A DNA stretch of 64,000 bases, from IMG/VR virus record IMGVR_UViG_3300027374_000002, positions 1-64,000 of that record. The stretch is one strand, 5' to 3'. Made by a program: the position numbers and the translations under genes. The DNA is from a virus. Taxonomy: Duplodnaviria; Caudoviricetes. Numbering within the stretch: position 1 is the first letter of the stretch; each line of letters opens with the position of its first letter. This document shows, one piece after another, positions 769-53,104 of this stretch. The notes beneath the pieces are model-generated. The model searched no databases and had not been told where the DNA came from. It saw only the letters and a program-made list of their open reading frames with translations.

Positions 769-3384
769 CTATTTTATAAATATTTCGGGAATGTTATATT
801 GAATATCTTGAACTTCACTTCGCACGGATTCTTTTGGACATTCCAAAAGAGATAGTTTCAGTTTCGGTCCCGAAAGAGTTGTTTCTACATATTTGCTTTG
901 GTTTTGTTTTATATAAGTGGAAGTTTCGCGCGAGAATCCGTTTCTTTGTAATAGAATGGTGAGAGGATTTGTTGAGCCATATTCCACAAATTCATACCAA
1001 TCATTATCAAAGTTTTCAACATGATGTTGCTTTTTATATTCTGTTGAAAAACGCAAGAAGTAATTTGCAAGGCTAAAAAGAATGGTATGATCAATGATTG
1101 TTAGTGTTTCCGCGGTTACGGCATTTTTGTGTAATCTTGAATCATCATAATATTCTGGTCTGCCATTAATATTTACGGTGGATTCAAAGTGTGTTTTCTT
1201 GTAAAATATAGCCTTATCAATTATACTTTTTAATCCATATCCTTCCATCCATTGAGTTAAAATAACTGCGTAATAACGTAATGCTTTATGTGATCCATCA
1301 TCAGAAATGGATCCGAGCGTTTTACTTTCATATTTATCCCATTTAAACATTACGTATAGTTCTTCTAAGAATTTTACTACCGTTTCATAGTCAAATGTGC
1401 CATCAGCGTTTCGGTCGGGATACTTTTTTCCGTTGCTAATTGCAGTGTACAAATTTTCTGTTTGGTCAACTGAAATATTTATGTCATCGTCAGGTTTTGT
1501 GCGTTTATGAGAGCCAAGAAAGTGCTGTTTGATTGCTTGAACATTTTCTGGATTAAGGAAATCGTCAAAGGCTCGACGAACGACGCTGTTTCTATCTTTA
1601 GTTATGTCGCGTAATAAAATTAAACCAAATTTACGCATGAGCGCATATGATTCTTTTGTTTGTGTCCCTGGATATTGCTGGAACTCAGTAGTGCCAGCAA
1701 GCAGCGATTCCACAATTTTAGCCTTTTGTGGCTTGGTTAATTCTGTAACCAGAGAAATTTTTTGTTCGGGGACATCTTGCTCGATAAGTTCTTGATATTT
1801 CTCTGCTCTTTGTTTGAGTTCGGAACGTATAATGAATACATTTCCGTAAAGGTTATATTCGATTCTTCCAACGCGCCCGATTAAATTACGGAAGTCAACT
1901 GGAGTCATATTGTGAGGTCCGTTGCCGTAACTCATAATAAATAAATTGTCGGCTGGCAGATTCACGCCTTCAACCAAAGTGCTTGTGCAGAATAAAATGG
2001 TTATTCTATGTTCACGGAAACATTTTTCTATATTTGCGCGGATATATGCGGGGAGATATCCAACGTGGTAAGCTACGCCTTTTGTAATAATATCTGCCAA
2101 ATAATATGTATCGTGAATTTCATTTCTTATTTCTTTGGCTATAGATTCTAATACGGGGTCATTCTTTGAAGGAAGAGTCTGCGCATATTCTCTTGCCATT
2201 TCAATAGCTTTATCTTTGCTATTAAAATAAACAATGCTTTGTTTGCCTGGAGTTGAAGCAATAGCCCTGACGAGTTGTAAAGGTCTAACACCGGGTTGTA
2301 AGCTGGTAATCGGAAGCATTTGCTTTGAATGCTCATTAAATAGGGTAACTTTTTGTGAAAAAGTATCTATATAATATTTTAGCTGGCTAACGGGGGAATA
2401 GCTTGTAGAAAGTGCAGCCCGCTTAGTTGCTTCAATGTCTGGTACGAGCTTAAGATACACTTCAGGATTAGGGATGTTAGGCGAAGCAAAAACAACATGC
2501 GGCTTGATTTCCTTTTCTGCAAGCATGTCTATAACTTTATAATAAAAAGCACTGCGTCCATCGCCAGAGGAAATTTTATGTGCTTCATCTATAAAAAGAT
2601 AATTTATGTTAATGCGAGGATTGCTTATTAATAAGTATAATAAGCGTTCCGGTGTTAAAACAAATATAAAGTTATGCGGCTGTTGAAGCATTAACGCGCC
2701 GGCAGAGTTAATTACTGTATAGTTTTTGTCTTCCAATAATGATTTAAGGTCTTGAATTATGTTGCTTGTAATTTCAGTAATTAGTGCCTTGGTAGGGACA
2801 AGAATAGCAAAATTAGCGGCAACGTCATTTTTTACTTTATCCTTGATGAACATTCTCATAAGGAGTGATTTTCCCATGGATGTGGGACCAGAATAGCTGA
2901 AGGCAGTTTCATCAAGCCGATCATAAATAGCTTTCTGTGAATGGAAAAAATACTTATTTTCTTGGTACGGAATTGATAGATACTCCATATCAAAATTTGC
3001 GTAAAGGGCATCAAGAAAAGAAGTACTGGTGTAATTTGTTTTTATTAATTGCACCCCGCGGTAGTTCCCGATTGTGGTGAGAACTGAAGCTGCGTAATAT
3101 TCAACTTTAGGATTGTTTGGATACAGGGTAAAAAGAAGAGCAACAATTTCTTGCGCCCAGGCTCTATGTTTTTCCGAGTTATCAAAGCCGGCAGACTTTG
3201 AAAGTAAATCAGCAAAACGTAGGGCATCATCCAAATTGATAGGGTGAGCGCTTATACTCTGTATGCTCATCAATTTATAACTATAATTTAGCAGCAAATT
3301 TGTATAAATTTCATTTAGGTATTCGTTTTTATCGATGTCCCTGAAAATTTCTTCACCGAGTGTAAGATGGTGAGGGGTTATCAT
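769..3384 (-). CDS. hamB: DEAD/DEAH-box SF2 helicase, Hachiman HamB-like
   Basis: Walker A GPTSMGKS, DEAH, GVAYHVG, TSTLVEGVNLPA, NLIGRVGR; ATGA-type overlap with the upstream DUF1837-like gene. Confidence 0.8.
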   Translation of the reverse strand: MITPHHLTLGEEIFRDIDKNEYLNEIYTNLLLNYSYKLMSIQSISAHPINLDDALRFADLLSKSAGFDNSEKHRAWAQEIVALLFTLYPNNPKVEYYAASVLTTIGNYRGVQLIKTNYTSTSFLDALYANFDMEYLSIPYQENKYFFHSQKAIYDRLDETAFSYSGPTSMGKSLLMRMFIKDKVKNDVAANFAILVPTKALITEITSNIIQDLKSLLEDKNYTVINSAGALMLQQPHNFIFVLTPERLLYLLISNPRININYLFIDEAHKISSGDGRSAFYYKVIDMLAEKEIKPHVVFASPNIPNPEVYLKLVPDIEATKRAALSTSYSPVSQLKYYIDTFSQKVTLFNEHSKQMLPITSLQPGVRPLQLVRAIASTPGKQSIVYFNSKDKAIEMAREYAQTLPSKNDPVLESIAKEIRNEIHDTYYLADIITKGVAYHVGYLPAYIRANIEKCFREHRITILFCTSTLVEGVNLPADNLFIMSYGNGPHNMTPVDFRNLIGRVGRIEYNLYGNVFIIRSELKQRAEKYQELIEQDVPEQKISLVTELTKPQKAKIVESLLAGTTEFQQYPGTQTKESYALMRKFGLILLRDITKDRNSVVRRAFDDFLNPENVQAIKQHFLGSHKRTKPDDDINISVDQTENLYTAISNGKKYPDRNADGTFDYETVVKFLEELYVMFKWDKYESKTLGSISDDGSHKALRYYAVILTQWMEGYGLKSIIDKAIFYKKTHFESTVNINGRPEYYDDSRLHKNAVTAETLTIIDHTILFSLANYFLRFSTEYKKQHHVENFDNDWYEFVEYGSTNPLTILLQRNGFSRETSTYIKQNQSKYVETTLSGPKLKLSLLECPKESVRSEVQDIQYNIPEIFIK

Positions 3385-4841
3385 GCTTCACCCCCTAAGG
3401 CGGTATTCATGATAAGGTTTTTATCATTATCGGCATCATTCAGTGGAAGGACATAAATATAAAATGAATACGCAGTTAAATTTTTATCACAAATTAATTT
3501 TTCTATATGAGGGATGCAAGCAGTTATATCGGCTTGCATTTTGCTATCAACCGCGGCGCGGTAATCCGCATTTGAAAGTAAGGCGGCGTTTGGAATGCCG
3601 ATGCTATAACCGATAAATAATCCGAAAGCAGTATCGGGAGGAACTGAACCGCCTTTTTGCGGAATTAACATTCCTTTGAGATATTGCATGGTGGGGGCAT
3701 CGAACGAGCGGTTTAAAATATCCCCTTCAATTAAGGTATATTCATCATTAGCGGTTGACTTGATTTCACTGATTTGAGCGAAAGCAGAATCTATTGCAGC
3801 TTTCAAATCGTTTACTACTTCAGAAGCTCCAAATATGACCTGATTGTTTGCACCGTTTGGAAGTAAATGTATGCCAGATGTTTTACTTTGGTATGTACCA
3901 CCTATATTTTGAAGTTCGATTTTACTGCTTATTTTGGGTGCGTTTAATGCGCATTCCAGAAACGAATATAACATTATTTCTGCAAAATGGCTTTGACCAG
4001 GGGCTGCAGTAACTCTCTTTTTGTACGCTCGAATAGCATCAGCAGTAAGATTTTCTATGTCTTCCATTGTGTATGAATTTCTTTGCGCGCGTGAAAAAAC
4101 ATAGCGTCCAATATTATCCCAGATAAATTTTGAAATATCTCTATAACTGAATTCGTTGCCGGAAACGCTTAAGTGATAAATATGAGTGGCAGAAGGGTTT
4201 GGAATAGAAAGAGCATGGTTGGGATGAACTTCAGTGAATACAGCATCAAACCTTGTGCTTCGTGCGGTAGCAGCAAGCGGGGTTACGGGGAGACTATGGC
4301 TTTCAATAATATTGATTTCATCTTTATGAGATTCAAAAGAAATTACATAATCTTTATCGATTTCTTTAATGCTTGCTTTCCAAGCTGTGTTTGAAACCTG
4401 TGTTACAGAATAGTAAAACAGGCAAGCCAAAAGACCGGATATAGAAAATGCATTTTTTGTTAGAATATCATGTTTAGTATATCCCGAAATGGGGCACAAA
4501 TTCTGACTATCAGGTATGGTTGTATCTTCGGTAAGTACCTGCTTAAACGCTAAAACAATATGTTTTTGAAGTGAAGAATTGAGATGTGGTAAAACACTTT
4601 CAGCGTAATAATCGGCAAGTTCATTTATAGGTTTTTTTCTGGTTAAATCTATGAATGCTTGGGAAGGATTTTTATCCCCACATTTTAAATGTCCTTGATA
4701 GCTGGCTTCTGCATATGAAGGATCATCCTCAATTCCAGCAAGTATAGCACTAAAAAGCCGCTGCTGTCCTCGAGCAGTAGCTTTGGCTTGCGAAATGATA
4801 TTTAAGAATGTTCCTATGCAAAGTTTCTTCAAATAGCGCAT
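3381..4841 (-). CDS. hamA: DUF1837/HamA-like protein with an extra ~210-aa N-terminal domain
   Basis: C-terminal half EIMLYSFLE..APKISSKIEL..GIHL..VIFG..AIDSAF..GLFIGY..FYIYVLP pattern; coupled to the helicase. Confidence 0.7.
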   Translation of the reverse strand: MRYLKKLCIGTFLNIISQAKATARGQQRLFSAILAGIEDDPSYAEASYQGHLKCGDKNPSQAFIDLTRKKPINELADYYAESVLPHLNSSLQKHIVLAFKQVLTEDTTIPDSQNLCPISGYTKHDILTKNAFSISGLLACLFYYSVTQVSNTAWKASIKEIDKDYVISFESHKDEINIIESHSLPVTPLAATARSTRFDAVFTEVHPNHALSIPNPSATHIYHLSVSGNEFSYRDISKFIWDNIGRYVFSRAQRNSYTMEDIENLTADAIRAYKKRVTAAPGQSHFAEIMLYSFLECALNAPKISSKIELQNIGGTYQSKTSGIHLLPNGANNQVIFGASEVVNDLKAAIDSAFAQISEIKSTANDEYTLIEGDILNRSFDAPTMQYLKGMLIPQKGGSVPPDTAFGLFIGYSIGIPNAALLSNADYRAAVDSKMQADITACIPHIEKLICDKNLTAYSFYIYVLPLNDADNDKNLIMNTALGGEA

Positions 4842-5964: not shown

Positions 5965-7090
5965 ACACGCAGTGCTTTCGGCATCAGCATCGCACCGTTG
6001 GCTCCACTGCAATCCGTCAGCCAGGCTTGAACTTGAATTCAAAGACCGGGAAACGGCGGCGGCAGCGGAAGGATCGGCGGCGCACGCACTCTGTGAACAC
6101 AAGCTCAGACGAAAGTTAAAACTTCGCAGCGAGAGACCGGTTTCCAATTTCGATAACGATGAAATGGAACAGTACACAGACGATTACACGGATTTCGTTA
6201 TGGAGCAGGTCATCCGGGAACGAAGGCGCGATGCGGAAACACAGGTTCTCATTGAACAGCGGCTGGACTTTTCCTGCTATGTGCCTGATGGCTTCGGAAC
6301 CGGAGACTGTTTGATTGTATCCAAAGGTCGACTGTATATTATCGATTTTAAGTACGGTCAGGGTGTGCTGGTGGAAGCGGAAGATAATTCTCAGATGAAG
6401 CTGTATGCGTTGGGCGCTTTGAGGGAGTTTGGAGAGAAGTACCAAATTAAAAAAATAAAAATGACTATCTTCCAACCCCGAAGAGAAAACGTAAGCACCT
6501 GGGAAATCACGGCAGCACGACTTAAGCGCTGGGCGGATAAGGACCTGAAACCCAGAGCAGTCAAAGCCTACAACGGCGAAGGCGAGTATTGCCCCGGCGA
6601 ATGGTGCTTGTTTTGCAAGGCGGCAGTCAAGTGCCGTGCAAGAGCCGAAGAGAAGTTAAAAATCGCGCAGAGCGAATTTAAACTTCCTCCACTGTTAACC
6701 GATGCTGAAATCGAAGTTGTCCTGGCAAAGCTGCCCAACATAAAAAAGTGGGCAGAGGAAATTCAGGAATACGCTTTGCAGGCGGCGCTCGGTGGGAAGC
6801 AGTGGCAGGGTTTCAAGCTGGTCGAAGGCAGGTCAAACCGCAAATATGCGGATGAGGAAGCGGTGGTCAAGGCGGCAAAGGCTGCCGGTTACCACGACAT
6901 TTACAAGCAGACTTTAATTCCGGTAACCGAAATGGAAAGGCTTATGGGGAAGAAGGAGTTTGCAACCGTCCTTGGCGGTCTCATAGTAAAACCGCAAGGC
7001 AAACCTACGCTTGTCGAGGATACCGATAAGCGTGTAGCAATTCAAGTATCCAATCCAAAAAACGAATTCAGTGAAATAAAAGGAGATTAA
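5951..7090 (+). CDS. DUF2800 PD-(D/E)xK nuclease-like phage protein
   Basis: HAVLSASASHRWLHC, GFGTGDCLIV, IIDFKYGQG, QMKLYALG, C..C..K..CRAR. Confidence 0.85.
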   Translation: MPPAKHAVLSASASHRWLHCNPSARLELEFKDRETAAAAEGSAAHALCEHKLRRKLKLRSERPVSNFDNDEMEQYTDDYTDFVMEQVIRERRRDAETQVLIEQRLDFSCYVPDGFGTGDCLIVSKGRLYIIDFKYGQGVLVEAEDNSQMKLYALGALREFGEKYQIKKIKMTIFQPRRENVSTWEITAARLKRWADKDLKPRAVKAYNGEGEYCPGEWCLFCKAAVKCRARAEEKLKIAQSEFKLPPLLTDAEIEVVLAKLPNIKKWAEEIQEYALQAALGGKQWQGFKLVEGRSNRKYADEEAVVKAAKAAGYHDIYKQTLIPVTEMERLMGKKEFATVLGGLIVKPQGKPTLVEDTDKRVAIQVSNPKNEFSEIKGD

Positions 7091-7094
7091 AAAA

Positions 7095-7646
7095 ATGGCA
7101 AATTCGAAGACAAAAGTAGTAACGGGCGTGGTGAGACTTTCCTACGCAAACGTATGGGAACCCAAGGCAGTAAGCGAGGGACAGACTCCCAAGTACAGTG
7201 TGTCGATAATCATTCCCAAGGATGATAAAGACACGCTTGCAAAAATCAACGCGGCAATTGATGCGGCGATTGAGGAAGGCATCGGTAAGTTCGGCGGCAA
7301 GAAGCCTAACAAAGCAACATTGAAACTTCCGCTCCGTGACGGTGATGTGGAAAGAGAGGATGACGAAGCGTATGCAAACGCATTCTTCGTAAACGCGAAC
7401 AGCGCAACGGCACCTCAGATTGTGGATGCAAGAGTGCAGCCTATTTTGGAGCGCGGCGAAGTATACAGCGGCGTATATGCGAGAGTTTCCATCAATTTCT
7501 ACGCTTTTAACAGCAGCGGCAATAGGGGCATCGCGTGCGGACTCGGAAACATTCAGAAGGTCCGTGACGGTGAACCTCTCGGCGGCAAGACGAAGGCAGA
7601 AGATGACTTCGGTGAATTGCCCGCGGATGCAGACGATTTACTTTAA
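7095..7646 (+). CDS. DUF2815 ssDNA-binding protein
   Basis: RLSYANVWEP, LPLRDGD, YSGVYAR, GIACGLGNIQK, acidic tail. Confidence 0.88.
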   Translation: MANSKTKVVTGVVRLSYANVWEPKAVSEGQTPKYSVSIIIPKDDKDTLAKINAAIDAAIEEGIGKFGGKKPNKATLKLPLRDGDVEREDDEAYANAFFVNANSATAPQIVDARVQPILERGEVYSGVYARVSINFYAFNSSGNRGIACGLGNIQKVRDGEPLGGKTKAEDDFGELPADADDLL

Positions 7647-7709
7647 GGCTCTATCGGTTGGGGTGGTAGGTTAGCCTATCACCCCTGAAACCGAACTGCG
7701 AGGTGGAAT

Positions 7710-9659
7710 ATGAAAACAATCAGCATTGACATTGAAACATATTCTTCCGTTGATTTGCAGAAGTCCGGTGTTTACCGGTATGCGGCAAGTGATGATTTTG
7801 AAATTTTGCTTTTTGCTTATTCCGTAGACGGTGGCGAAGTTAAAGTAATCGACCTTGCCTGCGGAGAGAAGATACCTCCCGATATCGTGCTGGCGCTTAC
7901 CGATGAGTCGGTACGGAAATTTGCGTTCAATGCGCAGTTCGAAAGGGTGTGTTTATCACGGCTTCTGGGATATTCAACGGGGAAATATATCGACCCGAAA
8001 TCTTGGTTCTGCACGATGGTGTGGGCTGCAACTTTGGGACTGCCTCTTTCGCTTGAAAAAGTGGGAGCAGTTCTGGGGCTTGACAAACAGAAGCTCGGTG
8101 TCGGTAAGGAACTCATCCGTTATTTTTGCAAACCATGTGAACCTTCGCAAATTAACGGTGAAAGAACCAGAAATCTTCCTTACCATAGCCGCGAAAAGTG
8201 GGAACTTTTCAAAACTTACAACAAACGCGATGTGGAAGCGGAAGCAGAAATACAAATGCGACTTTCTGCTTTTCCGGTTTCGGAAAGAGAGTGGGGAAAT
8301 TATCACCTTGATCAGCGTATCAACGATTACGGCATCGCGCTGGATATGGACTTCGTAGAACACGCGATACGGTGTGATGAAGTTAACACCGGCTCAGCAA
8401 CCGAGAAGGCGCGTGCGCTTACAGGAATTGACAATCCCAACTCACCGTCTCAGCTCAAAGCCTGGCTGATAGAGCAGGGGCAGGTTGTGGAATCGCTTTC
8501 AAAAGCGGAGGTAAATCGCCTTTTGCAAGATGCGACCGGGAACATTGAAGAAATCCTTCGGCTCCGTCAGGAACTTGCGAAGTCAAGCGTGAAGAAGTAT
8601 GTGGCTATGAAGAATGTAGTCGGAAGCGATAATCGCGCACGCGGACTTATTCAGTTTTATGGTGCAAATCGGACCGGACGGTATGCCGGGCGTTTGATTC
8701 AGGTTCAAAATCTGCCGCAAAACCACCTTGAAAATCTGCCGGCAGTACGTGAACTGGTGCGTTCCGATGACTACGATAGCCTTGAGAAAAAATACGGAAA
8801 TATTCCCAACGTGCTATCTGAGCTGATAAGAACAGCTTTTGTTCCGAAGGCGGGATGCAGATTTATAGTTGCTGACTTTTCGGCAATTGAAGCGCGAGTA
8901 ATCGCGTGGTTCGCCGGCGAACAGTGGCGCTTGGATGTATTTGCAAAAGGCGAAGATATCTATTGCGCATCAGCAAGCCAGATGTTCCACGTTCCGGTGC
9001 AAAAGAACGGCGTAAACGGACACCTGCGCCAGAAAGGGAAGATAGCGGAACTTGCGCTCGGTTACGGCGGCTCTGTGGGCGCACTGAAGGCAATGGGCGC
9101 AACGGCAATGGGAATTCCCGAAACCGAATTGAAGCCGCTGGTGGCGGCGTGGCGCGGCTCAAACCCGAACATTACAAAATTCTGGTGGGCTGTCGATAGG
9201 GCAGTTCGGTATGTAGTTTCAAACAAGCAAACCTATGAATGCTATGGTTTGAAATTCTCGTATGAGAAAGGAATTTTATTTATTCAGCTTCCTTCCGGTA
9301 GACGGCTTGCGTATGTGAGACCTCGAATTGGAGTGAACAATTTCGGCAGTGATTGTGTTACTTATGAAGGTTTGGGTGCTTCGAAGAAGTGGGAACGTAT
9401 CGAGAGTTACGGACCGAAATTCGTAGAGAATATCGTGCAGGCAACCGCGAGAGATGTTCTGGCGGATGCTATGATGCGCCTGGATAATGCTGGGTTCAAG
9501 ATTACGATGCATATTCACGATGAAGTTGTGCTTGAAGTTGAAAACGGCAAATCGAGCGTGGAAGAAGTTTGTGCAATTATGGGTGAAGCGTCGGAGTGGG
9601 CAGAGACGATGAACCTTCGCGCGGACGGTTATGAGTGCGCATTTTACAAAAAGGAGTGA
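7710..9659 (+). CDS. Phage DNA polymerase, family A
   Basis: Exonuclease IDIETYS, ADFSAIEARV (motif A), RQKGKIAELALGYG (motif B), HIHDE (motif C). Confidence 0.95.
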   Translation: MKTISIDIETYSSVDLQKSGVYRYAASDDFEILLFAYSVDGGEVKVIDLACGEKIPPDIVLALTDESVRKFAFNAQFERVCLSRLLGYSTGKYIDPKSWFCTMVWAATLGLPLSLEKVGAVLGLDKQKLGVGKELIRYFCKPCEPSQINGERTRNLPYHSREKWELFKTYNKRDVEAEAEIQMRLSAFPVSEREWGNYHLDQRINDYGIALDMDFVEHAIRCDEVNTGSATEKARALTGIDNPNSPSQLKAWLIEQGQVVESLSKAEVNRLLQDATGNIEEILRLRQELAKSSVKKYVAMKNVVGSDNRARGLIQFYGANRTGRYAGRLIQVQNLPQNHLENLPAVRELVRSDDYDSLEKKYGNIPNVLSELIRTAFVPKAGCRFIVADFSAIEARVIAWFAGEQWRLDVFAKGEDIYCASASQMFHVPVQKNGVNGHLRQKGKIAELALGYGGSVGALKAMGATAMGIPETELKPLVAAWRGSNPNITKFWWAVDRAVRYVVSNKQTYECYGLKFSYEKGILFIQLPSGRRLAYVRPRIGVNNFGSDCVTYEGLGASKKWERIESYGPKFVENIVQATARDVLADAMMRLDNAGFKITMHIHDEVVLEVENGKSSVEEVCAIMGEASEWAETMNLRADGYECAFYKKE

Positions 9660-43499: not shown

Positions 43500-43638
43500 A
43501 CTCGCCATGAGTATGGCAGATTCAATGCTTGCGCAAGGGATTATATCGGAAGCCGAGCATTATAAAATCGACCAGAAAATGTGTGAAAAATATTGTATCA
43601 AAATTACCTCTATTTTCCGAAATTATGCCCGAAAATGA
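43462..43638 (+). CDS. SHOCT-like small protein
   Basis: MLAQGIISEAEH.KID..M.EKY. Confidence 0.7.
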   Translation: MTKEEAERITGYKLAMSMADSMLAQGIISEAEHYKIDQKMCEKYCIKITSIFRNYARK

Positions 43639-43639
43639 G

Positions 43640-43668
43640 TGGATATAAATTCGGTTTAGAGGTAATAT
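43640..43668 (+). promoter_or_regulatory. Repeated promoter, copy 5
   Basis: TGGATA-N10-TTAGAGGTAATAT. Confidence 0.7.
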
Positions 43669-43697
43669 ACGCATGCCAAAAAACAAGGAGGTTTTCT

Positions 43698-44093
43698 ATG
43701 GAAAACAAGCTGGAAAAATTGAAGCAACAACGACCTTTGAGGGTTTGCGCGTATGTTCGCCGCAAGCCCGTTCCTGCGGCTCTGCCGGACATCCAAACCG
43801 AATACTACAACCGGTTAATCAATGGTGTCGATGGTTGGACGAACGCCGGGATTTATACCGACCTGCGGCTGAAAGACAGGGATATGAAGCGAATGCTGAA
43901 AGACTGCAAGAAGCGCAAAATTGACTTGATTATTACAAAGTCGGTTTCCAGGTTTTCGCGCGATGTGAGGAAGTTCGAAAAGATAATGAGCATTTTGAAA
44001 AAATGCGGGGTAGGCGTTTTCTTCGAGCTTGAAAACCTATATTCCCTTGATGCGGAAGCGGCTCTCCGGTTTGATATGCTTTTGGCAGATTGA
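43698..44093 (+). CDS. Resolvase-domain-only protein lacking the catalytic Ser
   Basis: VCAYVRRK in place of YARVS; IDLIITKSVSRFSR. Confidence 0.75.
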   Translation: MENKLEKLKQQRPLRVCAYVRRKPVPAALPDIQTEYYNRLINGVDGWTNAGIYTDLRLKDRDMKRMLKDCKKRKIDLIITKSVSRFSRDVRKFEKIMSILKKCGVGVFFELENLYSLDAEAALRFDMLLAD

Positions 44094-44103
44094 GGAGGGT
44101 GAA

Positions 44104-45420
44104 ATGGAAAGGACGGTACAGTTAGTAAGACCTACGCTTCCGAAGGCAGCGCAAATAAAAAGGGTATGCGCATACGCCAGAGTTTCAAGTGGAAAGGATG
44201 AAATGCTGCATTCGCTTTCGGCGCAGGTCAGTTATTACCAACGCCTCATTCAGTCCCGCGCAGCTTGGAAGTTCTGCGGGGTATATGCGGACGAAGCTGA
44301 AACCGGAACGAAGGACTCCCGTGAGCAGTTTCAGGAAATGCTGGCAGAATGTCGCAAGGGAAACATTGACCTGATCATCACAAAGTCCATCACCAGGTTT
44401 GCGCGAAACACAGTAACGCTTCTGCAGGCGGTTCGAGAACTCAAGGATATGGGCATCGAGATTTACTTCGAAGAGCAGAACATTTTCACGCTCTCAACCG
44501 AAGGCGAAGTGATGCTGACAATTCTCGCATCGTATGCGCAGGAAGAGAGCAGGTCAGCAAGCGAAAATCAGCTCTGGAGGGTAAAGCGGAACTTCGAAGA
44601 AGGCAAGGTCTGGGGGATGCAGATTTACGGTTACAAAGCAGTAGATTGTCAGCTCCAGATTATTCCGGAGGAAGCGGAAGTGGTGAAGCGAATTTTCGCA
44701 GAGTTCCTTGCCGGGAAAGGAAGGGAATCAATTCTGCGCGGCTTGAATCGAGATGGCATCAAACCCAGGCGTGCAGAAAAATGGCAAAGGACATCGGTTT
44801 ATAATATCCTGCGCAACTACGCTTATACCGGCAACCTGATTTTACAGAAAACCTACCGAGAAAATTTTATGACAAAAAAATCGATAGTGAACGATGGTAG
44901 GAAACCAAAGTATCATTGTCAGGAAACGCACGAGCCGATTATTTCAATGGAAACATACCAGCAAGCGCAGGCTGAGATTGAACGCCGAAACGCGAATCTT
45001 CCGAAGAAAGCTCCGTATATGATGTACCTATTTACGAGCCTGATTCGCTGCCCATATTGCGGGGTGAATTACCGCCGGTGCAAAGGTTATAGTTCCTGGC
45101 TTTGGCGCTGTAACACATTTGTGGTTCACGGGAAGCAATCCTGCCCGCAGTCAAAACAGATACGCGAAGATACGATGGTGAGCGTTACCGAAGAGGTGCT
45201 TGGCATCACCGGGTTAAACTACAAGAACATCCACGATGCCATTGATTTTATCGATGCCTTTGAAGGAAACCGGCTGGTGTTTCACTTGAAGAACGGCGAG
45301 GTGGTTGAGCGTGTTTGGAAAGACAGGTCCCGCGCCGAAAGCTGGACACCGGAAATGAAATTGAAAGCGAAGATTAAGGAAGCGGAAAGACAAGAAGAGT
45401 TAAAAAGGAGGGTGCAATAA
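44104..45420 (+). CDS. Large serine recombinase
   Basis: AYARVSS, ITKSITRFARN, recombinase domain, CPYCG zinc ribbon. Confidence 0.93.
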   Translation: MERTVQLVRPTLPKAAQIKRVCAYARVSSGKDEMLHSLSAQVSYYQRLIQSRAAWKFCGVYADEAETGTKDSREQFQEMLAECRKGNIDLIITKSITRFARNTVTLLQAVRELKDMGIEIYFEEQNIFTLSTEGEVMLTILASYAQEESRSASENQLWRVKRNFEEGKVWGMQIYGYKAVDCQLQIIPEEAEVVKRIFAEFLAGKGRESILRGLNRDGIKPRRAEKWQRTSVYNILRNYAYTGNLILQKTYRENFMTKKSIVNDGRKPKYHCQETHEPIISMETYQQAQAEIERRNANLPKKAPYMMYLFTSLIRCPYCGVNYRRCKGYSSWLWRCNTFVVHGKQSCPQSKQIREDTMVSVTEEVLGITGLNYKNIHDAIDFIDAFEGNRLVFHLKNGEVVERVWKDRSRAESWTPEMKLKAKIKEAERQEELKRRVQ

Positions 45421-46994
45421 TGCCGAAGGTTACAGTAATTCCAGCAACAAAGGATTTTTATACCGGCGTTGATAATAACACGTTCAAAAAGAAAAAGGTG
45501 GCTGCATATGCGCGAGTTTCCACCGCAAGTGAAGAACAGGAAACCTCATACGATGCGCAGGTTGATTACTATACGAAGTATATTCAGGGACGACCGGATT
45601 GGGAGTTTGTAAAAGTTTATACGGACAAGGCAATAACCGGTACGAATACCAAGCGTAGGAAAGGGTTCAAAGAAATGATAGACGATGCGCTTGCCGGAAA
45701 GATTGATTTAATTGTTACTAAGTCCATCAGCCGATTTGCACGAAACACGGTTGACACTCTGGTTACGGTCCGAAAGCTGAAAGAGAAAGGCATAGAGGTT
45801 TACTTTGAAAAGGAAAACATCTACACGTTGGATAGCAAGGGCGAGTTGCTCATAACGATTATGAGTTCGCTGGCGCAGGACGAAAGCCGAAGCATAAGTG
45901 ATAACGTAACGTGGGGACAGCGGAAGCGATTTGCGGACGGAAAAGTTAATATGCCTTATAAAAGGTTTCTGGGTTATAAAAAAGGTGAAAACGATCTGCC
46001 GGAAATCGTGCCGGAACAGGCAGAGGTGGTCAGGTTGATTTACTCGCTTTTTCTGGAAGGCAAGACGAGCTACGGCATAGCGAATTACCTGACAGAACAG
46101 CAAATCCCTACCCCGACAGGGAAGGTTATTCCCTGGAAATCAAGCACTATTGAAAGTATTCTACAAAATGAAAAATACAGAGGTTCGGCGCTTCTGCAGA
46201 AGAAATATACGGTGGACTTCCTCGAAAAGAAAATGATAGTCAACGATGGAAAGGTCCCGCAGTATTATGTAGAAGACAGCCACCCGGCAATAATAACGCC
46301 AGCGGAATTTGAAATTGTGCAAGGTGAAATTCAGCGCCGGAAAGCAAACAAAGGGAAATATAGCTGTTGCGCACCTTTTGCTTCAAAGGTTGTGTGCGGC
46401 GATTGTGGCGAGTTCTACGGGCAAAAGGTCTGGCATTCGAATAGTAAATACCGAAAGATAATATACCGCTGTAACGGCAAATATCACGGCGAGAAATGCG
46501 CAACGCCCACCCTCACGGAAGAGCAGTTGAAAGAGGGGTTCCTCAAAGCCATCAACAGCTTGATAGGCATTAAGGAAAGCCTGCTGGAAGATTGCCGGGA
46601 AATGCAGGCGGTGCTATCCGACACTGCAGCATTGGACGAAGAATTGAAAACCGTAACCGATGAGTTTATGGTGGTTCGAGAAATGCTTCGGAAGATGATT
46701 GAAGATAACTCGCGCAAGGTTCAGGACCAGGATGAGTTCTGGGCGAAATACAACCCGCTGGATGAGAGAGCGAAAAAGGCTGATGCGCGAATTAAGGAAT
46801 TGATGGAGCAGCGCACACAGCGCATACAGAAAGCGGAAACAATCGGCGCGTTTATGTTCGAGCTTCACGAGCGCGATGAAGCGGTGGAAGAATTCGATAA
46901 TAAGCTCTGGTTTATGACGGTTGATAAAGTGGTGGTTCAAAGGGACGGAAAGCTGATTTATCATTTCCGCAACGGATTAACGGTTGAAGTGTAG
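45420..46994 (+). CDS. Large serine recombinase
   Basis: AYARVST, KSISRFARN, CGDCG zinc ribbon, coiled coil. Confidence 0.94.
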   Translation: MPKVTVIPATKDFYTGVDNNTFKKKKVAAYARVSTASEEQETSYDAQVDYYTKYIQGRPDWEFVKVYTDKAITGTNTKRRKGFKEMIDDALAGKIDLIVTKSISRFARNTVDTLVTVRKLKEKGIEVYFEKENIYTLDSKGELLITIMSSLAQDESRSISDNVTWGQRKRFADGKVNMPYKRFLGYKKGENDLPEIVPEQAEVVRLIYSLFLEGKTSYGIANYLTEQQIPTPTGKVIPWKSSTIESILQNEKYRGSALLQKKYTVDFLEKKMIVNDGKVPQYYVEDSHPAIITPAEFEIVQGEIQRRKANKGKYSCCAPFASKVVCGDCGEFYGQKVWHSNSKYRKIIYRCNGKYHGEKCATPTLTEEQLKEGFLKAINSLIGIKESLLEDCREMQAVLSDTAALDEELKTVTDEFMVVREMLRKMIEDNSRKVQDQDEFWAKYNPLDERAKKADARIKELMEQRTQRIQKAETIGAFMFELHERDEAVEEFDNKLWFMTVDKVVVQRDGKLIYHFRNGLTVEV

Positions 46995-48028: not shown

Positions 48029-48057
48029 TTGACAGCGGGCTGCCTGTTTGATATAAT
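48029..48057 (+). promoter_or_regulatory. Consensus sigmaA promoter overlapped by an 8-bp IR
   Basis: TTGACA-17-TATAAT with TG; CCCGCTGT (48005-12) / ACAGCGGG (48032-39). Confidence 0.85.
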
Positions 48058-48062
48058 AAAAG

Positions 48063-48243
48063 CACAGAGAAGGGCATTGCAAAAAAAATAGTCGGATGTA
48101 AAGCATCTTGGATTTGCGACCTGTTATGCAAGTGACAGGGAACAAGGACGAATGATTTATATAACACCATTTTTTGAGTTGATGCCTGACGGGGCTACAA
48201 GGGCGTAGTCTATATTCGTCAGGCTCATTTTATGCCCTCTGTG
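48063..48243 (+). ncRNA. Candidate structured RNA or 5' leader of the RNase III operon
   Basis: Closing stem 48063-77/48232-43 plus several nested hairpins, starting at the predicted TSS. Confidence 0.5.
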
Positions 48244-48267
48244 AAATAAACACGGAGGTATTTTTTT

Positions 48268-49338
48268 ATGAAGGATGAACAGTACACCGAGATTGAACAG
48301 CAAATCGGTTACGAGTTCGAGAACAGGTTGTTATTGCAGCAAGCGTTCACCCGGAAAAGCTATACGGAAGAAACGCACGATGGCGATAACAATGAAGTGT
48401 TGGAGTTCATTGGCGATAAGGTTCTGGACCTGATCATCGTCAAGGTTCTGACTGAGTATTACGGTGAAATTAACGAACGCAACGAGTATGAGTGCGAATA
48501 CACAGAAGGCAAGCTCACTGAGTTTAAGAAGCATCTGGTGGAAAGTAAGATGCTGGCTGAGCGCATAGACGAGCTTGGATTCGCGGATTACTTAATTATG
48601 GGGAAAGGGGACAAAAAGAATAATGTCCAGAACGAAACCCATGTGAAAGAGGATTTATTTGAAGCAATTCTCGGCGCTGTTGCCCTTGACAGCGGTTGGG
48701 ATATGGCTGCAATGCAGGACGCGGTGGAAATGATGCTGCACGTTGATTGCTATTTGGATGAAGGGTTCGATGAGGACCAGGACTATGTTTCCATCATCCA
48801 GCGTTGGCAGCAGAAGCGCATCGGGGAATTACCCGATTACAAGTTTACGGACAAGCAGACTTACGACTTAAACCGCATGCTTCGGTGTTACACCTTTGTA
48901 AACCGGCGTGAAAGAATGGAAGCGGGTGAAGGTGATATTGTTTGTGAATTGCGCATTGATGATGGTGAACCGTTTGTTGGTTTCGGGTATTCAAAGAGCC
49001 TGGCAAGAATGGCGGCGGCGGAGCTTGCGTATGATTATTTGGATGAAAACGGTCTTCTGCGCACAATGCAGGATGAGATTGGTGAACCTTCGCGCGAAAG
49101 AGCAGTGAGCCAACTTCACGAGCTGTCCCAGAAGGGATACTTCTCTGCGCCGGTTTATGAGTTCGAAGAGGACCACGATGAAAACGGGAACCCGGTCTGG
49201 ACCTGCGAATGCAGCATCGCCGAATATGAGGACGCATATTTTTACGAGGCAAGTTCGAAGAAGGAAGCGAAACGGCTGGCAGCTTATGAAATGCTTCTCT
49301 CGATTCTAAACCATACAAATGAGGAGGATGACAGATGA
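48268..49338 (+). CDS. rnc: Ribonuclease III with two dsRNA-binding domains
   Basis: NEVLEFIGDKVL signature, EDLFEAILGAV; two dsRBMs ending SKSLARMAAA and SKKEAKRLAA. Confidence 0.92.
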   Translation: MKDEQYTEIEQQIGYEFENRLLLQQAFTRKSYTEETHDGDNNEVLEFIGDKVLDLIIVKVLTEYYGEINERNEYECEYTEGKLTEFKKHLVESKMLAERIDELGFADYLIMGKGDKKNNVQNETHVKEDLFEAILGAVALDSGWDMAAMQDAVEMMLHVDCYLDEGFDEDQDYVSIIQRWQQKRIGELPDYKFTDKQTYDLNRMLRCYTFVNRRERMEAGEGDIVCELRIDDGEPFVGFGYSKSLARMAAAELAYDYLDENGLLRTMQDEIGEPSRERAVSQLHELSQKGYFSAPVYEFEEDHDENGNPVWTCECSIAEYEDAYFYEASSKKEAKRLAAYEMLLSILNHTNEEDDR

Positions 49339-50744
49339 GAGTTGTATCAACAAAGCTGAAAATGGTTGATGCGTTTACGGAAGCGGAGTTTTTCGGAACC
49401 ATAAATCAGTGGATGAAAAATGCCGGTCCTTGCAAGGCGGTGGCTGAACAGCTCGAAGCCTGCGAAGAGAAAGTTGGTGTGCATCTGGAAGCGGAATATT
49501 GTATTGCGGATACTTTCCAAATCGAAAAGGAAGATTCAACGTTCACCCTGTTCAAGTTGGAACAGGAATTCCATCAGCAGACCTGGACGAACGAAGTTAT
49601 TCTTAAAAGTGCCGGCAGTGAGAAGGAGGTGTTCTTCCACATTGATTGCTCCCGCGATGCGACCAGATTTGACGAAGCACCTGAAATGCGCACAGAGGTT
49701 ATTCGCACTTTTGTAAACAGCGGGTATGTAAAGCAACCGAAGGTTCCTATTACTTCCAGGACCGTTGAAGCAACCAATGACCTGCTCGATTGGATAGCGG
49801 CTGCTATTCAGGAAGAATATACTGAGGAATTGCCGTTAATTCTTGCGACTACATATTTTGGAAGCCAGGCAATCGAGATTGATGATTTTGCGCTTTCGAG
49901 GAAGTTGGCAGGACTTGCGTACATTGTGGTGTGCGATAACGAATACACAAGACTTCTGAAGGATAAGGCGAAATGTGCAGTGCCGTTCAATGGCGCGGTT
50001 ACAATTTACTGCAAAGGTGGGAAGCCGCGTCAGTTCCGGAAAAAGGATGCGTTCCTGGGCGCAACGCTTGATAAGCAGATAGCAAATGAAGTGCAAAGGT
50101 TTGTAACCGCAGCGGTTGATGCCGAAGCACCGACTTGGGAAGCACTTCACGCTGAGCTGGTTCATAAGGAAGCGAAAGAAAATGCTGCTCTGGCAGAAGA
50201 AGCGTTCGATGCAAACGAAACGCTGGACGAAAAGCTGAAAAGGGCAGAGGAAAGAATCGCAGCGCTGGTGCAAGAGAACATGCAGTTGACTGCAAAGAAC
50301 GAAAGCCTGAACAGAGCGCTTACGAAAAACGATGCCGTTCAAACGGTATTAGAGGCTTCAAGCATTCCGGAGTTCTTCGAAGGCGAACAGCACGATTTGG
50401 TGGTTTCCATTTTACAGAAAGCGCTGTCGAACTGCGGCACAAAGGATACTCGGCAGAAAGAACTGCTCACCGACCTTTTGGCGCATAACCATATAATCGG
50501 AAAAGGCAAGGAACTGTTCGAAGTGGTTAAGTCTATATTCGCTGATGGTGAAGACCTTTCCGCGAAAGAGCTGGCAGAGCTGAAAAGGGTGGGCTTTGAA
50601 ATCACAAGCGAGAACACGCACTACAAGCTGGTTTATAAGGGAAGCAAATACTGGTTCAGCTTGGCGAAAACCACGAGCGATAAAACCCGCAGCGGGAAGA
50701 ACCTGACTTCGGACATTACGAAAACACTCTCGGTCTATAAATAG
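49335..50744 (+). CDS. Hypothetical protein: N-terminal domains, coiled coil, HicA-like C-terminus
   Basis: ATGA overlap with rnc; LKRVGFEITSENTHYKL..KTTSD..GKN. Confidence 0.7.
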   Translation: MRVVSTKLKMVDAFTEAEFFGTINQWMKNAGPCKAVAEQLEACEEKVGVHLEAEYCIADTFQIEKEDSTFTLFKLEQEFHQQTWTNEVILKSAGSEKEVFFHIDCSRDATRFDEAPEMRTEVIRTFVNSGYVKQPKVPITSRTVEATNDLLDWIAAAIQEEYTEELPLILATTYFGSQAIEIDDFALSRKLAGLAYIVVCDNEYTRLLKDKAKCAVPFNGAVTIYCKGGKPRQFRKKDAFLGATLDKQIANEVQRFVTAAVDAEAPTWEALHAELVHKEAKENAALAEEAFDANETLDEKLKRAEERIAALVQENMQLTAKNESLNRALTKNDAVQTVLEASSIPEFFEGEQHDLVVSILQKALSNCGTKDTRQKELLTDLLAHNHIIGKGKELFEVVKSIFADGEDLSAKELAELKRVGFEITSENTHYKLVYKGSKYWFSLAKTTSDKTRSGKNLTSDITKTLSVYK

Positions 50745-50754
50745 GAGAAAGAAA

Positions 50755-50916
50755 ATGCGTACAACAGCAATCTGCCCGGAATGCGGCGCAGTCCAGAAAG
50801 GGTTAATTTTACAGGAAACAAAAGGCTCGGTTGTCTGCAATAAATGCGGTAAGCAGTTTGAGGCTCCTTTTGAAGAACCCGCAGAAGAACCGGAAAAGAA
50901 AAGCAAGCCGGAATAG
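50755..50916 (+). CDS. 53-aa zinc-ribbon microprotein (not in the ORF track)
   Basis: AGGAGA RBS; MRTTAICPECG..VVCNKCGKQF. Confidence 0.7.
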   Translation: MRTTAICPECGAVQKGLILQETKGSVVCNKCGKQFEAPFEEPAEEPEKKSKPE

Positions 50917-51093
50917 TTTTCTACCATTTTAATGAAAAAACCGTCATCCCAACCGGGTGGCGGTAAATTTTTTTTATTTTTTTGCAACTTTTTTTGAAAA
51001 CACCATCAAAATAGTAGTTCGGATCGTGTATATACCTATGAACACTTTCACACTCACTTAAAAAATCCCATCGAGTGTGAAGAGGAGGTTTTT

Positions 51094-51222
51094 ATGAATT
51101 ATTTTAATATTCATAAGCATTACACTCTTTGTGTAGTGTGCGGGCGTAAAGTCCGTTCAAAATACCCCTTCCAGATTATCTGTGATGAGTGTTTTGAAGA
51201 AGAACTTGATAGATTAGATTAA
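51094..51222 (+). CDS. 42-aa CxxC..CxxC microprotein (not in the ORF track)
   Basis: GAGGAGG RBS; LCVVCGRK..IICDECFEEE. Confidence 0.65.
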   Translation: MNYFNIHKHYTLCVVCGRKVRSKYPFQIICDECFEEELDRLD

Positions 51223-51245
51223 TCTATCCGAGAAAACAATCATCC

Positions 51246-51266
51246 CTTAATCGGGGTGGTGGTTTT
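51246..51266 (+). repeat. 21-bp direct repeat (terminator arm), left of gmrSD
   Basis: CTTAATCGGGGTGGTGGTTTT, identical to 53121-53141. Confidence 0.85.
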
Positions 51267-51337: not shown

Positions 51338-53104
51338 GTGAACTCAATGCCCACTAACAATAAATACGAAGATATGAGCGCCCTTGATGCGCTGCGCTTT
51401 GCCGAGAACCATACCTTATTGCTGCCGGATATCCAGAGGGAATATGTATGGGACTATCAGGAAATCGAAAGGCTGTTTGAATCAATAGTGGACGAGTACC
51501 CGATTGGCTCTTGTATTTTCTGGAAAACCAACCGCGCAACCATAAACGCAGAAAAACCGAACCTGTATTATTTTCTGCGTGAGTACGAGCGCTGGAAAAC
51601 GAAGAATGAAAAAGCGCCGGAGGTGTTTAGCAACGAAATTGATTATTACATCGTGCTTGATGGACAGCAGCGTATCACCTCACTGAACATTGCACTTTAT
51701 GGTTCGTATACATATTACAAGGGCGGCAGGGGACACGCTTGGGATAATCCAAAGTCGTGGTTGACAAAAGAGCTTTATTATAACCTTGATTTCTACGCGG
51801 CATCCAATGAAGAAGAGGATGATGAGAACCCCAGGAAGCGCTTTGTTTTTTTAACAAAGGAGGATGCGGAAGCGGGACATTATTACAAAATAAAAAATTT
51901 ACTCGCATTCGATAAATTGCAGCGGTTTGTGCTTGCTTTGAATAATCTGACAACCGATGAAAAGGTAATCGATGACTTGTCAATGCTCTTTGAGCGTCTG
52001 CACAACGCTTCCGGGAATGGGTTGATTCATTACTATTGTATTTCCGAAAATACATACGATGAAGCTCTGGACATCTTTGTGCGCGTAAACTCCACCGGCA
52101 GAAAGCTCTCAAAATCTGACTTACTTTTTTCGACCTTGATAGACGGGTGGAAGACCGGCAAAGAGAATATTGAAAACCTTCTCGCCACGATGAATTCCAA
52201 AGGGGACAAGTTCAATTTCACCAGAGATTACTTGATGCGACTTTGCCTGGTTCTGGTTGATGCTAATACAAACCTGAAAATAAACTCTTTAAATCAAAAG
52301 ACGGTTTTATCGATTCGTGATAATTGGGATGCGATATACGCCGCCGCAGATACCATGTCAACTGTCCTGGCAGACATTGGTCTTTCCAACGAAACCTTGA
52401 CTTCGTATAACGCAACGATGCCCATCGTTTATTTCTTATACAAGGGCGGCAAGATAAAAGATAAAGAAGCGAAAAAGGAAGTGCGTAAATTCCTGTCGGT
52501 TGCTATGGCTCAGCGCCTCTTCGGTGTTGCAAGTAACGATGCTTTGAATAAAACGCGCAACGTGCTGAAAGCGCTTGATTGCAAGAAGGCGGTTTTCGGG
52601 TTATCACTTTTCGCGGAAACCACGCTCACCGGTGGCAGAACATTTACGGTTTCTGAAAAGGACATCGACCATTGGCTGAATACCTACGAAAAAGGGCAAA
52701 GCACATATTTGCTTTTGGCGCTGCTTTACCCGAATTACAAGTTGAGCCAGGTTGCGTTCCATCAGGACCATTGTCACCCACACGTATCTTTTGATGATAA
52801 AAATATAATTGCACTGGGGCTGACCGAAGAAAAAGTGAAGGAGTGGCAGAAGAAGCGTAATCTCCTTCCGAACCTTCAATTTTTGGAAGGTACAGAAAAC
52901 GAGTCAAAGAATAAAACACCGCTTTATGAATGGGTGAACGCAGGGTATAACTTTTTGTATCGTCCCGCGGGCGTTTCACTTGAACTGAAAGATTTTGATG
53001 TGTTCTTTAATGAAAGAAGGAAGCTGATTAAAAAAGAACTCGCATCGATATTCGGCGTTACGCTTCCGGAAGAAAACCCGGACAGCAATACTGAAGAAGC
53101 ATAA
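51338..53104 (+). CDS. gmrSD: GmrSD-family modification-dependent restriction protein (DUF262 + HNH/DUF1524-like)
   Basis: LPDIQREYVW, LDGQQRITS, IFVRVNSTG; DHCHP..NL..N.SK. Confidence 0.88.
   Translation: MNSMPTNNKYEDMSALDALRFAENHTLLLPDIQREYVWDYQEIERLFESIVDEYPIGSCIFWKTNRATINAEKPNLYYFLREYERWKTKNEKAPEVFSNEIDYYIVLDGQQRITSLNIALYGSYTYYKGGRGHAWDNPKSWLTKELYYNLDFYAASNEEEDDENPRKRFVFLTKEDAEAGHYYKIKNLLAFDKLQRFVLALNNLTTDEKVIDDLSMLFERLHNASGNGLIHYYCISENTYDEALDIFVRVNSTGRKLSKSDLLFSTLIDGWKTGKENIENLLATMNSKGDKFNFTRDYLMRLCLVLVDANTNLKINSLNQKTVLSIRDNWDAIYAAADTMSTVLADIGLSNETLTSYNATMPIVYFLYKGGKIKDKEAKKEVRKFLSVAMAQRLFGVASNDALNKTRNVLKALDCKKAVFGLSLFAETTLTGGRTFTVSEKDIDHWLNTYEKGQSTYLLLALLYPNYKLSQVAFHQDHCHPHVSFDDKNIIALGLTEEKVKEWQKKRNLLPNLQFLEGTENESKNKTPLYEWVNAGYNFLYRPAGVSLELKDFDVFFNERRKLIKKELASIFGVTLPEENPDSNTEEA

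Follow-up and report, generated by a model that had tools for sequence, protein, structure and literature searches.

Do a structured RNA, an RNase III gene and a coupled gene for a 469-amino-acid (aa) protein, all behind one apparent promoter in a phage genome, form a single immune system, or have separate elements come together there? The question is raised by positions 48029-50974 of a 64,000-nucleotide (nt) stretch of a Caudoviricetes virus (IMG/VR record IMGVR_UViG_3300027374_000002, positions 1 to 64,000; hereafter the window). A preliminary description of this DNA had seen one RNA-centred toxin-antitoxin or anti-phage module in four parts, i.e., the leader RNA, the RNase III, the 469-aa protein with a HicA-like end and a 53-aa zinc ribbon. 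The comparative evidence presented here dissolves this unit: the leader accompanies the RNase III gene irrespective of the 469-aa gene, the zinc ribbon is not conserved, and the RNase III with its leader on one side and the 469-aa effector on the other are two modules that also exist separately. The reading that we favour, with a probability of roughly 0.5, is that of a cargo operon in which the feedback-controlled leader of an RNase III also sets the expression of a HicA-type abortive-infection effector. The effector probably represents a new version of an already known defence type, HEC-07, and not a wholly new system; the new element is the coupling of leader and RNase III to this HEC-07-like effector. 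The operon is composed as follows.

48029..48057, + strand: promoter of sigma-70 type, TTGACA-17-TATAAT with a TG extension (extended -10), 12 of 12 consensus positions
48062..48267, + strand: structured 5' leader of the RNase III gene, recognised by covariation, fold z-score and covariance-model matches
48237..48267, + strand: terminator-like hairpin (48236-48258) burying the Shine-Dalgarno (SD) sequence, then a U run up to the start codon
48268..49338, + strand: accessory long-form RNase III, 356 aa, reading frame open, ATG at 48268
49335..50744, + strand: HEC-07-like protein, 469 aa, reading frame open, its ATG overlapping the preceding TGA as ATGA
50755..50916, + strand: zinc-ribbon open reading frame (ORF), 53 aa, open, two CxxC pairs
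50940..50974, + strand: intrinsic-terminator-like hairpin (50940-50964) with a T run at the operon end, 10-bp stem with 6 GC pairs

The consensus promoter, the folded leader, the three ORFs and the closing hairpin of the preliminary description are thus all present, and a single transcription unit for the region is plausible. The -35 and -10 boxes are kept across 10 related loci.

That the leader is a real, strongly covarying structured RNA with no prior description is well supported; it could well represent a new cis-regulatory family. Positions 48064-48290 have a folding energy of -70.9 kcal/mol, which none of 200 shuffled sequences equalled (z = -5.4). The leader is about 200 nt long and consists of a three-way junction and, 3' of it, a terminator-like hairpin in which the ribosome-binding site is hidden. 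Stem P1 pairs 48073-48077 with 48232-48236 as invariant GGCAU/AUGCC; P2 is a long hairpin (~48083-48176) whose apex carries the invariant motif UUAUGCAAGUG at 48124-48134 with a GNRA-type loop, kept as UAUG(C/A)AAGUG across the leader sequences; and P3 is a further hairpin (~48181-48226). The arms of the SD hairpin read CUCUGUG...CACGGAG, with the SD itself, GGAGG, at 48254-48258. Upstream regions of RNase III genes at nine loci, whose proteins are merely 59-80% identical, have a mean column identity of 72% and conserve the promoter, and RNAalifold on these nine sequences recovered P1, P2, P3 and the SD-sequestering hairpin with 12 compensatory pairs. Across 59 distinct leader sequences, 90.9% of cells pair as compared to 42-49% in slid-partner controls, 41 of the 52 pairs vary on both sides, and no shuffle matched the values for pairing or change; because this alignment was fitted to the model the pairing figures are somewhat inflated, but the margin is still large. 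For the SD hairpin (helix 7) alone, 92.6% of cells pair and five of seven pairs vary on both sides. The leader also contains invariant unpaired nucleotides. In most sequences its 5' end can pair with the 5' arm of the SD hairpin as a continuation of P1, which makes a switch between a sequestered and an open state plausible from the sequence. Rfam 15, which includes rnc leaders and riboswitches, has nothing that matches 48062-48275 at E <= 1, and no paper on a leader like this one was found in the literature.

A covariance model made from the nine upstream sequences located the leader directly 5' of long RNase III genes with two double-stranded RNA-binding domains (dsRBDs) in about 70 loci fetched via RNase III. 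The leader-bearing loci are mostly devoid of the 469-aa gene, and distant, solo RNase III genes bear the leader too (E 1e-19 to 5e-5). Every cmsearch match at E <= 1e-4 over ~990 kb of loci lies directly upstream of a long RNase III, and when 150 whole genomes of the class were searched without bias, all three full-length matches took the same position. The leader is thereby shown to be tied exclusively to the RNase III gene. Its membership in the effector module was considered and ruled out, as the same model had zero matches upstream of the 469-aa gene in loci that contain only this gene. Since the leader occurs with one RNA-binding enzyme only, the simplest interpretation is feedback by this enzyme, and by analogy we infer a feedback element controlled by its RNase III. 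E. coli rnc offers the precedent for such autoregulation, as RNase III cuts its own structured 5' leader there. The whole-genome search also returned a partial leader match of 122 nt with no RNase III gene nearby (L133, G155:C10:26311-26432; E 1.3e-4), which is either a chance hit or a remnant.

The enzyme behind the leader is a mobile RNase III. Pfam and NCBIfam profiles detect RNase III domains (E 5e-21 and 1e-16) and dsrm (E 2e-14) in the 356-aa protein, and its TIGR02191 score of 152.6 bits is below the cut-off of 166.25. Judged by E43, E46, D50, D129 and E132, which are invariant across 17 relatives (51-91% identity), the active site is intact. A profile search of the PDB aligned residues 3-259 to a whole bacterial RNase III including its dsRBD and, separately, residues 278-348 to the dsRBDs of TARBP2, PKR, Loquacious and R2D2; these two alignments indicate that the protein has two dsRBDs. 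Each of the five carrier genomes tested encodes a second, short RNase III as well (above the TIGR02191 cut-off in three, 152.8 bits in one, partial in one), and the RNase III of the module is therefore accessory. The thought that it might be the only rnc of its host is rejected for these five genomes. Its position outside the rnc-smc-ftsY context, remarked upon earlier, is correct in that the record is a phage, to which the usual context does not apply. PADLOC contains no model for this RNase III, and no paper on a two-dsRBD RNase III of bacteria or phages was found.

The 469-aa protein belongs to a family that profile matches show to be related to HEC-07, a protein whose defence activity was demonstrated by experiment. 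HEC-07 (Hma-embedded candidate 07; Payne et al.) is a single gene whose product combines an AdoMetDC-like N-domain, a CxxC-less thioredoxin-like domain and a C-terminal RelE RNase, and it is among the seven of nine candidates that lowered plaquing in E. coli (bioRxiv 10.1101/2024.01.29.577857). The PADLOC search recommended in the preliminary description matched the HEC-07 model (PDLC04161) to the window protein at E 5.9e-8 (residues 76-340 versus model positions 100-371 of 553). Nine of the ten distant relatives match HEC-07 as well, with E down to 4e-15. With a profile from 18 homologues, 1,902 cluster-50 representatives were found, mostly ~470 aa long and matched end to end; the family is sporadic, with members in 4 out of 399 genomes from the class. 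An AlphaFold model (predicted local distance difference test, pLDDT, 81) divides the window protein into four regions, i.e., an alpha/beta N-domain (1-127), a thioredoxin fold (~140-260), a coiled-coil/helical region (245-402) and a HicA-like module (410-465). Thioredoxin chains superimpose on ~140-260 with Z 9.6, a root-mean-square deviation of ~3 Å over ~105 aligned residues and a Foldseek probability of 1.0, and no CxxC occurs anywhere in residues 140-260. The fold of the N-domain drew weak Bet v 1/SRPBCC-like rows only (4igv, probability 0.72; 2ns9, probability 0.54), and Foldseek with the whole model returned nothing below E 1e-3.

The C-terminal end is predicted to be a HicA-type RNase. 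Its modelled topology is alpha-beta-beta-beta-alpha in the full model and when folded alone (pLDDT 72), and phrog_2053 matches residues 414-465 of the window protein (E 6e-6). The C-termini of relatives match HicA-like and not RelE profiles: the PADLOC HicA-like model hits 3 of 10 distant relatives (1.6e-5 to 5.6e-4), and Pfam HicA_toxin (PF07927) hits 1 of 93 (2.4e-5). Just three residues, W84, N385 and H429, never vary over these 93 sequences (~20% identity), and G420 and F421 hardly do. H429 is located in a G-F...H-Y-K motif, a position that would make it the counterpart of the HicA catalytic His. Among the neighbours, which are the RNase III and the zinc-ribbon ORF, none matches a HicB-type antitoxin. 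Given an end of HicA instead of RelE type, we file the protein as HEC-07-like and not as HEC-07 proper. The earlier perception of a HicA-like end is supported by the predicted topology, by His429 and by the HicA matches of relatives, although the HicA similarity of the window protein itself is weak. Two further arrangements of the effector were seen: a 531-aa protein at L021:3267-4862 joins an HNH_4 endonuclease N-terminus to the effector C-terminal half (coiled coil and HicA-like end), with a GmrSD gene next to it, and a 206-aa protein in L022 consists of the C-terminal half alone.

How firmly are the two modules joined? Their pairing is real, old, clade-specific (one or two RNase III clades) and losable. 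Among the loci collected with the effector, an RNase III gene stands immediately upstream in L003-5, L007-10 and L018-20. Among those collected with RNase III, the effector lies downstream only where the RNase III is at least ~49% identical to that of the window (L045-55, L065), and the remaining ones have a solo RNase III or unrelated small ORFs downstream. Stop and start codons of the two genes overlap or are spaced by at most 15 nt in ~20 loci, and the coupling persists down to 37% effector identity. A quickly built RNase III tree (84 distinct sequences) places 18 of the 20 effector-linked ones in one clade with 99% support and the other two in a pair; the remaining 64 are solo. Locus L023 retains just a 50-aa stub of RNase III, and at L014:7087-7998 BspA-type leucine-rich repeats (LRR_5) replace the catalytic domain, both dsRBDs being kept next to the effector and no leader being found. 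Distant effectors in whole genomes stand without an RNase III. The co-occurrence that the preliminary description asked about was therefore found in part: the leader is always with RNase III and the pair is coupled in ~20 loci, but most long RNase III sequences are solo and most members of the effector family have no RNase III. Similarly, the statement that no described system has this layout applies to the RNase III-effector pairing, for which our literature search found no paper on RNase III and HicA together, but not to the effector, a HEC-07-type protein. Neither the RNase III profile nor the ORFs 3' of solo RNase III proved related to the upstream ORFs that stand in for RNase III (L015, L017, L024-26, L125, L128). 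In three of these loci, on viral contigs (L024:6203-7981, and likewise L025 and L026), the effector is preceded by two ORFs of no known family and with no Pfam match: one encodes 338 aa with a hydrophobic N-terminus, the other 237 aa, with a GSG...DFD pattern that recalls minimal nucleotidyltransferases.

The position of the operon supports its reading as defence cargo of a temperate gut phage or prophage. The source record is an 84-kb IMG/VR phage with tail genes and genes for a family A DNA polymerase, a D5-type primase and an SNF2 helicase. Of the nearby defence genes named earlier, HamAB and GmrSD were recovered: HamA with a helicase at 769-4841 on the minus strand, and just 3' of the operon a GmrSD gene (51338-53104) that matches the PADLOC HEC-05/BrxU family with E 5e-148. 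Large serine recombinase genes (43593-46994) end ~1 kb upstream of the operon. In at least 14 loci, a tandem pair of large serine recombinase genes precedes leader and RNase III in the same orientation, with a gap of ~300 nt and no other gene between; the gap is ~1 kb in the window and its close relatives L045 and L046. The site downstream of the serine recombinases is thus a recurrent cargo slot. Many of the loci with tandem recombinases and leader (L029-L046) sit at viral contig ends. The adjacency of the HEC-05-matching GmrSD gene and the HEC-07-like gene makes two 'HEC'-type genes neighbours in this prophage; between the operon terminator and the GmrSD gene lie a 42-aa ORF with two CxxC pairs (51094-51222) and, 3' of it, a terminator-like hairpin (51239-51260).

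The last gene of the operon is lineage-specific and probably outside the conserved module. Its 53-aa product has two CxxC pairs and weak zinc-ribbon matches, and of 35 loci examined, L045, the closest relative, is the only one with a counterpart. The zinc ribbon was ruled out as a part of the system, as it is missing downstream of the effector everywhere but there. The L045 counterpart (7488-7664) ends in SDITKTLSAHK, a near-repeat of the last residues of the effector, which suggests a small duplication at the 3' end of the gene.

It is tempting to propose how the two modules would work together. In module 1, the RNase III would bind or cut the long P2 and P3 helices of its own leader, and this action would set the level of transcript read-through and translation. 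Because the effector gene is translationally coupled to RNase III in the window lineage, leader and RNase III would also set the effector level. In module 2, the alpha/beta N-domain and the CxxC-less thioredoxin-like domain are the presumed sensor or auto-inhibitor, and the HicA-type RNase, once released, would cut RNA and thereby abort infection. The defence cargo position and the HEC-07-related effector are in line with the anti-phage role put forward in the preliminary description; RNase III might gate the effector directly.

Several observations weigh against a cargo operon in which the feedback-controlled RNase III leader governs a HicA-type effector. RNase III is absent from L006, whose effector is 59% identical to that of the window, and from L015, L017 and L024-26. 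In L005 (frameshift, 6945-8001) and L009 (in-frame TAA, 6910-8004) the RNase III gene is broken and the effector gene intact, due to gene decay or assembly error. As the pair is facultative, its co-location might reflect just two cargo genes under one promoter. A small molecule or another protein could be the regulator of the leader instead of RNase III. As for the effector, the HEC-07 match, with its moderate E-value, covers only the N-terminal and middle parts of the sequence and stops short of the toxin domain; Pfam found only coiled-coil noise in the window protein and no HicA at E < 0.1. The C-terminal fold on its own repeatedly draws HicA chains, at non-significant Foldseek E of 0.5-1.2 and with low VIA Z scores (3.6 for 4p78_D, 3.2 for 1whz, 3.1 for 6g26_E and 2.8 for 6hpb_C), and a PDB sequence search with the C-terminal profile gave chance rows only and no HicA.

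Other explanations of the same locus divide on whether the pairing or its looseness is taken as the telling fact. RNase III and effector might be a two-component sensor and effector, in which RNase III, or its dsRBDs alone, detects phage dsRNA and then activates the effector physically or restrains it in the manner of an antitoxin, the leader being a built-in dsRNA decoy or feedback target. Translational coupling that outlasts effector divergence to 37% identity speaks for this view, as does the phylogenetic clustering of the effector-linked RNase III genes, for which two origins are possible, and the dsRBDs kept without a catalytic domain in L014 hint that these domains are the partner that matters. 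However, L006 shows that effectors nested among paired ones can lack RNase III, the broken genes of L005 and L009 accompany intact effectors, and the wider effector family stands alone, like HEC-07, so that we regard a two-component system as possible but doubtful. At the other extreme the two would be unrelated neighbours: the RNase III would serve RNA processing by the phage itself or counter-defence (for example removal of dsRNA or processing of type I toxin-antitoxin duplexes), and the effector would be an independent superinfection exclusion gene sharing the promoter. Indeed, 64 of the 84 distinct sequences are RNase III genes that stand solo behind the same leader, which makes this the commonest form; it is often the first gene after prophage recombinases, and the effector family is mostly solo as well. 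Yet a stop/start overlap conserved over a deep clade exceeds what chance adjacency would give; mere co-residence appears unlikely to us.

The leader invites two more proposals, each of which we hold to be improbable. It could be a riboswitch, with a small molecule or ion at the three-way junction deciding between the SD-sequestering terminator and read-through. The invariant P1, which closes the junction and abuts the expression-platform hairpin, would suit such a device, as would the invariant unpaired nucleotides and the GNRA-type apical motif; however, a leader that occurs only upstream of one enzyme family that binds structured RNA follows the pattern of protein autoregulation, and no metabolic gene is associated with it. 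Alternatively, the feedback loop might be a sensor of dsRNA load: RNase III would cut or clamp the leader in the uninfected lysogen and keep both genes nearly silent, until phage dsRNA titrates the enzyme, the leader reads through and the coupled effector aborts infection. The immune trigger would then be an RNA-enzyme feedback loop and not a protein sensor.

If our favoured reading of a feedback-controlled RNase III leader that also sets a HicA-type effector is true, the HEC-07 type of single-chain RNase defence gains a HicA-ended branch of ~1,900 cluster representatives, a large unannotated family of gut Firmicutes receives a testable function, and this branch is linked to a mobile two-dsRBD RNase III with a newly recognised structured leader. 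Should the modules act together, this would be a first example of an immune response in bacteria that runs through RNase III and dsRNA, echoing eukaryotic dsRNA sensing. Should they be independent, three things that had been merged are still separated, and those worth an experiment are identified.

Comparison with known systems places each part differently. With the bacterial class 1 RNase III (Rnc), the window enzyme shares the signatures NNEVLEFIGD and KEDLFEA and a canonical dsRBD in the usual place; it differs by its extra dsRBD, its equivalog score below the cut-off and its mobile, accessory instead of housekeeping character. Like the E. coli rnc leader, the leader RNA is a structured 5' untranslated region ahead of its own RNase III gene, but it is a much larger RNA with a three-way junction and no Rfam match. 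For the 469-aa protein, CapRel(SJ46), as presented through Gerdes 2024, offers a working model of a toxin and its inhibitory sensor in one chain, although the two are unrelated in sequence and fold. Closer are the fused HicA classes 13 and 14, large single-gene proteins with a canonical C-terminal HicA fold after helical or coiled-coil regions and no separate HicB (Gerdes, mBio 2024; bioRxiv 10.1101/2023.12.08.570793), for which phage defence through auto-inhibition lifted by a phage cue was proposed (Gerdes, bioRxiv 10.1101/2023.12.08.570793). The window protein is likewise encoded by a single gene, with a HicA-like end after a coiled coil and no HicB. By their descriptions, however, class 13 (340-440 aa, the N-terminus being mostly helical) and class 14 (an SMC fusion) appear to be set apart from it, and these descriptions mention neither a thioredoxin-like domain nor an RNase III neighbour, both of which are present here. 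HEC-07 corresponds to it in one chain with an alpha/beta N-domain, a CxxC-less thioredoxin-like domain and a small C-terminal RNase toxin domain with a conserved His (the toxin domain being a prediction for the window protein), and both proteins are found in defence and mobile-element contexts. In contrast to HEC-07, the window protein has a long inserted coiled coil and a HicA-like (alpha-beta-beta-beta-alpha) instead of a RelE-like C-terminus, and where HEC-07 stands alone, its gene is coupled to that of an RNase III and placed under the leader of the latter.

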